Shown in pieces: positions 2,529 to 3,737 of a DNA stretch of 64,000 bases. This stretch comes from Dehalococcoidia bacterium (GTDB lineage Bacteria > Chloroflexota > Dehalococcoidia > DSTF01 > WHTK01): contig JBFWZE010000001.1 of NCBI GenBank assembly GCA_050185685.1, positions 2,421 through 66,420 of the forward strand. The letters are read 5' to 3'. How positions within the stretch are numbered: position 1 is the stretch's first letter; every line of letters begins with the position of its first letter. Under the pieces are notes generated by a model. It was not told where the DNA came from and ran no database searches. It was given only the letters and a program-made list of their open reading frames with translations. A program made the translations under genes and the position numbers.

Positions 2529-3737
2529 CTAGAGCACGTCAAGCGCTTGCGGCGCATTCGCCCGGTACTCGGCCCAGCTGTCCGCCGCCATGTATTCGTC
2601 CCAGCAGCGGTACATCCAGAGTTGCGTGTGCTCCGTCATCTTCGCGTCGATGCGGGGCGGCTTGCCCTCCTCGTGCACGATCTGGCCCCGGTTCAGGTTC
2701 ATCGCGTAGTTGAACGGGTAGCGGCGGTTGACGAGACTCTCGGTGCCGCGCGTGCAGTCCATCCAGTTCTCGCCGTCCTCGATGCCGAAGAAGCCGGCAG
2801 CGCCGAGGTGGTGGTTCTGGCGCATCCGGGTGCGCGCCGTCTTCTCTTCGTCCCACTCTTTGCCGTAGAAGCTGAAGCGCCAGAGCTCGGTGACGCCGGG
2901 GCCCTTCGGCATGCGCATCTCGATCTCGAAGCTGTTGAAGAAGACGTTGGGGAACAGGCTGCGCGCCGAGTCCGCCATCGTGCAGTGGCCGAACTCCGAG
3001 AGGTAGATCGCGCGCACCGGGTTCGGGTCGGCGTTCGGGTTCTGCGGAGGCCCACCGTACTCCGCCCGCGCCATCTTCGGCGACGCGTGGGTGATGATCA
3101 CGTGGTAGAAGTCCCAGTTGTTGTCGTGCGCCAGCTTCCAGTTCGCCGGCATCGAGTACTTCGAGACGCCGCCCCAGCACTGCATGTCGCCCTGGTCGGC
3201 GAACCCGTCGATGCCCTGGCGGCCGGCGGCGTCGAGGAAGTCGAAAAGGCTCGGCGAATCCGGGTCCATGGTCGCGAAGATCAGGCCGCGGTAGCTGTCG
3301 ACCTTCGCCGCCTTGATCAGGCCCCAGTTCTCGCGGTCGAGCTCCTCGTGGTAGACCTCTTTGAAGCCGGGGACACCGACGAGCGCGCCTTTGAGGTCGT
3401 AGGTCCAGCCGTGGTAGGTGCACATGAAGCTCGTCGCATGGCCTTCCTCGGCGCGGCAGACGGCATTGCCGCGGTGACGGCAGCTGTTCACGAGCACCTG
3501 CGGCTGCATGTCGTTGTCTCGCACGACGATGACCCTGTCTTCGCCGATGAAGGTCATGAAGAAGTCGCCGGGGTTCGGGATCTGACTGTCGTGGCACATG
3601 AAGTTCCAGCAGCGGGCGAAGATCCGTTCGAGCTCCTGCTGGTAGATCGCCTCGTCGGAGAAGATGATGCGGTCGACGAGCCCGCGCTGGGCGTCGACGT
3701 ACGTGGGCTTGCCGCTCGACCGGGTCACTGAGGCCAT
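2529..3737 (-). CDS. Rieske non-heme iron ring-hydroxylating oxygenase, alpha subunit (paralog 1)
   Basis: Rieske motif CRHRG...17 aa...CTYHGW and mononuclear Fe ligands DNNWDFYH...THAS. GGAGGAG ribosome-binding site 6 nt before the ATG at 3737. Confidence 0.85.
   Translation of the reverse strand: [402 protein letters not shown]

Follow-up and report, generated by a model that had tools for sequence, protein, structure and literature searches.

Oxygenases of the HcaE/HcaF and biphenyl/toluene type are alpha3beta3 enzymes in which electrons reach the iron site of an alpha subunit from the Rieske domain of the alpha beside it. A precedent of another kind is the concerted evolution of tufA/tufB and of rRNA operons, where ectopic gene conversion homogenises dispersed paralogs and same-genome copies are closer to each other than to their orthologues. 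Here we analyse 64,000 nucleotides of a Dehalococcoidia bacterium (assembly GCA_050185685.1, contig JBFWZE010000001.1, positions 2,421 to 66,420 of the forward strand); this whole stretch is called the window, and positions given below are positions in it. It carries three genes for Rieske oxygenase alpha subunits, called A, B and C, and an earlier note on this DNA had described A and B as mosaic paralogs with nearly identical Rieske domains and divergent catalytic domains. We favour, with good though not full confidence, the explanation that A and B belong to a very large HcaE-like alpha-subunit family of Dehalococcoidia in which a constant Rieske cassette, maintained by purifying selection together with recurrent gene conversion, is joined to a variable catalytic module.

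The likeness to the HcaE/HcaF and biphenyl/toluene type is seen in the best PDB sequence matches (8k0a, 1uli and 3en1; E = 7e-87 to 6e-83), in the combination of PF00355 with PF00848, in the C-x-H-x17-C-x2-H cluster motif and in the D-x2-H-x4-H...D iron site. The matches to PDB alpha subunits have E <= 1e-80 and are full length from the second one on (1uli in full, 8k0a in two stretches). A, B and C score 248, 332 and 412 bits against the HcaE equivalog model (NCBIfam NF042946), whose cut-off is 830, and are on this criterion HcaE-like but not HcaE. In further contrast to HcaE/HcaF, there is no adjacent beta, ferredoxin or reductase gene here, and dozens of paralogs exist per genome.

The closest genomic parallel is the expansion in SAR202 and other marine Chloroflexota, also of class Dehalococcoidia, with tens of alpha genes and very few beta genes (PMC6946804, PMC6123686); the accessible text of PMC6946804 gives 1 to 62 alpha but 1 to 3 beta copies for SAR202 genomes. 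Such dioxygenase expansions in Dehalococcoidia/SAR202 have been proposed as the basis of the oxidation of recalcitrant dissolved organic matter, and they pose a puzzle, with dozens of alphas working with almost no betas or dedicated electron carriers. The luciferase-like, enolase-superfamily and Baeyer-Villiger-type enzymes of the window are typical of the repertoire described there. The accessible parts of both papers give copy numbers and annotations, not domain-specific conservation or conversion, and most copies there are annotated as phthalate-type, whereas the alphas here are HcaE-like. In Sphingobium yanoikuyae B1 one electron-donor system serves several alpha(beta) oxygenases (PMC1847435), which is the model proposed here. 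There, however, each oxygenase has its own beta subunit, and the sharing is experimentally grounded while here it is inferred; near-identical Rieske domains are not mentioned in the accessible part of PMC1847435. In comparison with concerted evolution of the tufA/tufB type, homogenisation here would be confined to a domain block of about 350 nucleotides in very divergent genes and would extend across tens of paralogs, giving a constant/variable architecture and not whole-gene homogenisation. In the literature searched we found no description of tens of paralogs that carry a constant Rieske cassette and evolve in concert in that domain only.

The three genes and their parts are the following.

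2529-3737, minus strand: gene A, Rieske oxygenase alpha subunit of 402 amino acids, Pfam PF00355 and PF00848
3291-3635, minus strand: Rieske core block of A, residues 35-149, inside a blastn-similar stretch at 3264-3679
2529-3290, minus strand: catalytic (Ring_hydroxyl_A) domain of A, divergent and about 40 residues shorter than in B
48078-49400, minus strand: gene B, Rieske oxygenase alpha subunit of 440 amino acids with a GTG start, Pfam PF00355 and PF00848
48951-49295, minus strand: Rieske core block of B, residues 36-150, inside a blastn-similar stretch at 48924-49339
48078-48950, minus strand: catalytic domain of B, with D210, H213, H218 and D358 invariant in the family
9708-11054, plus strand: gene C, third Rieske oxygenase alpha subunit (Pfam), of a different lineage and used as internal control

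The alignment of A with B by blastn gave one strong match, of 418 nucleotides at 88.5% identity with 44 mismatches and 4 gap openings, covering the two stretches listed; beyond it, the same comparison of the genes plus 300-nucleotide flanks gave only short and weak matches. The core of 115 residues, from ELERIFAR to KVDSY, has 3 amino-acid differences (97.4% protein identity) and differs at 31 of 345 nucleotides (91.0% identity), and the catalytic parts are identical at 38% of protein and about 55% of nucleotide positions. In a codon-aware sliding window, identity was 93-100% for amino acids and 87-94% for nucleotides at alignment columns ~41-160, and 15-55% and 40-69%, respectively, outside them. 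This block-limited peak is the opposite of the uniform profile that, according to the earlier note, would speak against a mosaic. The figures of that note also held: its near-identical Rieske DNA of about 400 nucleotides at about 90% lies within some 21 nucleotides of ours, the peptide that it quoted for both Rieske domains is correct, and its 35-40% amino-acid identity for the catalytic domains agrees with the measured 38%. Gene C is 35-36% identical to A and B (tblastn); it is without the shared block, its corresponding part being only 48-49% identical to the blocks of A and B. The similarity of the A and B blocks is far beyond chance, and its size is inflated by codon bias.

Both genes are intact open reading frames. 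PF00355 was found in A and B with E-values of 8e-15 and 6e-15 (Pfam scan), and both keep the C-x-H-x17-C-x2-H string. In B the cluster ligands are C87, H89, C107 and H110 (C87-R-H89 ... C107-T-Y-H110), invariant or nearly so among 40 family members, and the catalytic domain of A carries the iron-ligand motifs D-x2-H-x4-H and EDGENW. Gene B is a typical member of the main family, and A is a short, divergent catalytic subtype, whose orthologues P0002 (84%) and P0003 (80%) also have 402-403 amino acids. Two long open reading frames that overlap A, 2235-3731 (plus strand) and 2539-3768 (minus strand), are spurious, as is usual in DNA of high G+C content; they were rejected as genes, since the pattern of G+C at third codon positions (GC3) backs only the frame of 2529-3737 on the minus strand.

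A block of this kind might also arise from a collapsed or chimeric repeat in the contig. The source is a metagenome-assembled genome (MAG), and conserved blocks of 350 nucleotides are a known hazard for short-read assemblers. However, 44 positions distinguish the two copies, which rules out a collapse, and both genes are intact with all ligand motifs kept. An independent MAG, GCA_050179895.1, encodes a protein one residue off that of A; its contig JBFXER010000146.1 matches 4.1 kb around A at 99.7% and shows the same 44 mismatches to B, which excludes for A the chimeric assembly that the earlier note had raised. The protein of B is matched at 100% by the NCBI MAG protein P0121, deposited unchanged from a contig of 71.7 kb. 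An assembly artefact is thus barely credible.

The constancy of the block extends far beyond these two genes. Homologues of gene A at E <= 1e-20 number more than 4300. Nearly all of the best 120 have blocks with 85-97% amino-acid identity to those of A and B (lowest 78%), and their catalytic parts have, orthologues aside, 37-46% identity to A and, in nearly all, 45-62% to B, the highest value being the 72% of P0109. The conservation profile of the family has a sharp peak at B residues 35-150, with 78 of the 115 block columns conserved at 95% or more. A scan of one genome per species gave 221 relatives, and most of the best 80 came from two Dehalococcoidia genomes, OZ252017.1 (a chromosome of 3.06 Mb) and CBDCMQ01, whose fetched loci contain at least 38 and at least 47 family alpha genes, respectively. 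Among the 98 family genes with DNA, block identity stays at 87-91% for catalytic identities of 35-65%. In proteobacterial relatives (Sphingomonas, Reyranella, Steroidobacteraceae), by contrast, catalytic identity to B is 47-51% and block identity just 68-72%, so that the extreme constancy belongs to the Dehalococcoidia family in particular; at equal catalytic divergence the Rieske domains are about 73% identical in the former and about 90% in the latter.

The same pattern is found within the lineage of the window, for which nine more paralogs, from this species and a single close relative, brought the set to 11 including A and B. Their block nucleotide identity was 84.4 +/- 2.9% (54 pairs), ranging from 77.8 to 91.0%. 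A and B are the top pair of this set, and their block amino-acid identity falls at about the 99.9th percentile of the 1436 divergent paralog pairs of the two other genomes. Still, the family as a whole behaves alike: A and B are one ordinary pair of members of an unusual family, and any two members within one window would give the same finding.

The first rank of this pair is what a recent partial duplication or gene conversion between A and B, as suggested by the earlier note, would leave. Yet their 31 differences in the block are evenly spread, with no contiguous near-identical tract with sharp edges and no identical run longer than 49 nucleotides, and block synonymous divergence (dS) is about 0.38, against 0.01-0.13 in truly fresh tracts. 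Several further paralogs of this species come almost as close to the A/B block (94-95% of amino acids, 87-89% of nucleotides), and the block of B is as near to that of P0002, the A orthologue from another sample, as to that of A itself, with 3 differences to each. A recent event specific to this pair is therefore largely refuted and quite improbable: the similarity of A and B is not the product of a recent event, and the word "recent" of the earlier note has to be dropped.

Most of the nucleotide identity between the two blocks is instead due to constraint on the protein and to GC3 codon bias. GC3 is 0.89-0.94 in A, B and C, and at about 0.9 identical amino acids yield identical codons some two thirds of the time. 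Of the degenerate block codons that encode the same residue, 85 of 105 are identical between A and B; codon usage alone predicts 70.6 of 105 when estimated from the three genes and 62.3 of 105 when estimated from the genes of the window. The codons that differ comprise 20 synonymous and 3 non-synonymous changes. By NG86 (dS was computed by this method and by LWL85), A-B dS comes to 0.38 for the block and to 0.70 for the remainder of the gene, where in this lineage it saturates at 0.63-0.85 because of codon bias. A general caution follows: at a GC3 of about 0.9, nucleotide identity of some 85-90% over a strongly conserved domain is no evidence for a recent event.

Selection and codon bias are probably not the whole story, as the nearest relative of either gene is a different one in the block than outside it. 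In the triplet of A, B and the A orthologue P0003, A sides in the block with its paralog at 9 amino-acid positions and with the orthologue at 1, and in the rest at 10 and 102 (Fisher p = 7e-8). In the triplet of B, A and P0122, which is the syntenic orthologue of B with the same MarR - SBP_bac_5 - alpha order, the counts are 10 : 1 in the block and 6 : 112 in the rest (p = 3e-10). These triplet and quartet tests on A and B concern the amino-acid level only. Neighbour-joining trees agree: the catalytic part of A joins that of P0003 (locus L076) with a bootstrap of 100%, whereas its block joins that of B. Three derived states, M78, Q79 and K146, are common to A, P0002 and B and absent from P0003, P0122 and P0109, and M78 is found in 7 of the 11 paralogs of this lineage against 3 of 85 in the two other genomes. 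These patterns support the view that A and B took part in an exchange of the block, which would be old and not recent. Of the partial duplication or conversion proposed in the earlier note, a Rieske-confined exchange that operates in the family and touched A and B thus stands; what does not is an event specific to this pair, since the pattern is family-wide.

Exchange is seen in the sister genomes too. OZ252017.1 and CBDCMQ01 share 26 reciprocal-best catalytic pairs. In the 24 used as orthologue pairs (L013_9609 and L025_8043 were left out of these statistics for frame problems in the 3' half, where nucleotide identity fell below amino-acid identity), nucleotide identity is usually 88-96% over the catalytic part and often just 82-87% over the protein-invariant block, close to the paralog background of 82.1 +/- 2.6%. 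In 19 of the 24 the block had a lower same-codon identity than the rest (p < 0.01 in 8; pooled p = 3e-14), and for several discordant genes the best block match was another paralog of the same genome, at 93-100%. Identical runs of 198-291 nucleotides were observed in the blocks of divergent paralogs (L017/L042, L010, L013 and L015/L025), with nucleotide identity of about 55-65% elsewhere (where the codon alignment is reliable), catalytic protein identity of 47-63% and dS down to 0.13. The ratio of block to catalytic differences fell from about 0.9 in close orthologues to 0.22 in distant paralogs, as expected of a fast-mixing but bounded block. Outside the class, two paralogs of the isolate Sphingomonas vulcanisoli CECT 8804 lie 4 kb from each other (L055, 7998-9347 and 12118-13488), with a block dS of 0.01, a match of 578 nucleotides at 94.6% and catalytic domains 52% identical. 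To judge from these sequences, domain-confined gene conversion is real in this family.

Several other mosaics deserve mention. In the pairs L013 8010/9609, L075 1377/2732 and L010 8001/15806, the two paralogs lie in tandem or close together; they match wholly or almost wholly over the 5' halves (N-terminus plus block) and diverge over the 3' halves, and the S. vulcanisoli pair, although outside Dehalococcoidia, is the cleanest fresh mosaic that we saw. Residue 126 of B is the common end of four independent identical tracts, which may point to a site where conversion tends to stop, or to a polymorphic codon that they share.

The observations on orthologues bear also on the idea of a lineage-specific burst, in which the paralogs would be recent, their catalytic domains would have diverged extremely fast under positive selection and the block would show their true, short divergence. 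The plateau of block identity near 90% whatever the catalytic divergence fits such a burst, as do the block states S86 and V94, fixed in all 11 paralogs of this lineage. But genes of different lineages are orthologous in the catalytic domain (A and P0003, joined with a bootstrap of 100%; B and the syntenic P0122; and the 26 reciprocal-best pairs), so the paralogs predate the lineage splits. Moreover, the paralogs of each genome were already seen to be non-monophyletic in trees of the catalytic domain, and synonymous sites of the block are well diverged in ordinary paralog pairs. We regard a burst as highly improbable.

The most serious alternative is that purifying selection and codon bias act alone: the paralogs would be old, their Rieske domains unchanged, no DNA would be exchanged, and residues shared by A and B would be retained or parallel. 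The conservation of the block across the whole family and the 62-71 of 105 codons expected to be identical from codon usage are in line with this, as are paralogs of Steroidobacteraceae that reach 86-90% block identity with saturated third positions. A number of further points weigh against the explanation favoured above. For A and B taken alone, same-codon identity does not differ significantly between block and rest (Fisher p = 0.06-0.12), and uniform synonymous divergence is thus not rejected; their block dS of 0.38 is unremarkable among pairs of the same lineage (0.35-0.59). The bootstrap that joins A with B in the block is modest (61-65%), composition may bias the nucleotide tree (GC3 is 0.73 in the orthologue against 0.9 here), and the few derived residues shared by A and B could be parallel adaptation to a lineage-specific partner. 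Conversion is unnecessary to explain the block plateau of about 90%. Mean block identity is equal within and between the two related genomes, a comparison that is uninformative on conversion, since these are close relatives and few pairs are affected. Family members were retrieved via Rieske motifs, so the family is partly defined by its block; the comparison genomes are mostly MAGs, and the identical tracts are known at the assembly level only. Finally, the sharing of a ferredoxin, a reductase or a beta subunit among the alpha paralogs is purely inferential, and electron-transfer genes were not located.

Selection alone, however, does not account for the switch of nearest relative in both A and B, for the union of A with its orthologue in one part of the gene and with B in the other, for orthologues of sister genomes that are more diverged at synonymous sites in a protein-invariant block than in the catalytic part, or for identical tracts of 200-290 nucleotides between divergent paralogs. 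We consider it unlikely, though clearly less so than the other alternatives, and retain the combination of selection with conversion. According to this combined explanation, every family member would consist of a near-invariant Rieske [2Fe-2S] domain of 115 residues joined to a highly divergent catalytic domain. Strong purifying selection and codon bias (GC3 ~0.9) would by themselves bring paralogs of the same species to about 84% nucleotide identity. At some 82-90%, the block would then be a substrate for ectopic conversion, and recurrent, block-limited events would move its variants between paralogs and spread them through the family. The reason for the freezing of this domain while substrate pockets diversify may be that it is the docking module for a common electron donor (ferredoxin/reductase), a standard electron-input plug for interchangeable catalytic modules; many alphas probably dock the same single orphan beta subunit. 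The suggestion of the earlier note that the two enzymes share an electron-input module and differ in their substrate pockets fits all observations.

The distribution of partner genes is compatible with this. Pfam scans of likely-gene open reading frames and tblastn searches with three beta subunits revealed no gene for a beta subunit, a ferredoxin or a reductase in the 64-kb window; such genes could be located in other parts of the genome. No beta gene was adjacent to any of the ~85 family alpha genes in the fetched loci of the two related genomes. Each of these genomes has one orphan HcaF-like beta gene (L026 11490-12017 and L030 11493-12020, both on the minus strand and 88% identical), which passes the cut-off of the HcaF-subfamily NCBIfam model and is a candidate for the shared beta subunit of the whole alpha family. 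Its neighbours are hydrolase and ABC-permease genes; one alpha gene stands about 2 kb away, and the two do not form an operon. In proteobacterial homologues a beta gene stood beside the alpha gene in 9 of 12 loci. A motif scan of 822 neighbouring open reading frames gave no credible small Fe-S ferredoxin, and no ferredoxin or reductase was present around the proteobacterial homologues L052 and L055 (gene calling) or L054 (listed open reading frames only).

The block is constant across the family, conversion acts on it, and partner genes are lacking beside the alpha genes; sharing of partners is the probable reason for the constancy. A stronger version, which we put forward only tentatively and hold to be rather doubtful, is that of a true constant/variable enzyme system, in which selection and domain-confined conversion keep the Rieske plug uniform, one ferredoxin/reductase pair and one orphan beta serve the whole catalytic library, and conversion maintains the shared interface and is not a mere by-product. 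Such a system might even allow mixed alpha heterotrimers, which are conceivable because electrons pass from the Rieske domain of one alpha to the iron site of the adjacent one. The puzzle of many alphas with few partners would have a concrete and testable answer in a Rieske domain that is both constant and exchangeable: one donor chain, many catalytic modules. More generally, concerted evolution at the level of a domain can decouple the histories of the two halves of one enzyme, which would mislead whole-gene oxygenase trees as well as primers and marker surveys aimed at the conserved Rieske region.

The neighbourhoods of A and B contain the following genes (those from 49435 on by Pfam/NCBIfam).

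3865-6561, plus strand: MalT/LuxR-type regulator, divergent beside A, Pfam TPR_MalT, GerE and AAA_16
45032-47689, plus strand: MalT/LuxR-type regulator, convergent with B, Pfam TPR_MalT and GerE
49435-51138, minus strand: family-5 solute-binding protein, neighbour of B
51333-51911, plus strand: MarR regulator
51908-52690, minus strand: HAD hydrolase
52770-53642, minus strand: BphD/HsaD-like meta-cleavage hydrolase
53725-54732, plus strand: BphC-like extradiol dioxygenase

The stretch 49435-54732 next to B consists of aromatic catabolism genes, and the solute-binding protein, the MarR regulator and the BphD/HsaD-like and BphC-like enzymes suggest that B probably catalyses the first step of an aromatic meta-cleavage route. 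The regulators beside A and B are both proteins of about 890 amino acids with a STAND NTPase - TPR - helix-turn-helix layout, and their orientations differ.

Elsewhere in the window, which belongs to a contig with 65% G+C, there are a Baeyer-Villiger/FMO-type monooxygenase, two luciferase-like flavin monooxygenases and an enolase-superfamily enzyme (at 18113-20056, 29774-30841, 34144-35307 and 40979-41947). An open reading frame at 43757-44149 (minus strand) encodes 130 amino acids, of which 32 are cysteines (25%), with many C-x-C repeats, a GC3 of 0.89, an AAGGAG ribosome-binding site just upstream and no Pfam match. Its product may be a small cysteine-rich protein, metallothionein-like or of another kind. 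A second pair of dispersed paralogs in the window is formed by the MFS transporters at 13223-14431 (minus strand) and 24534-26258 (plus strand), which share inverted repeats of 168-330 nucleotides at 70-79% identity.

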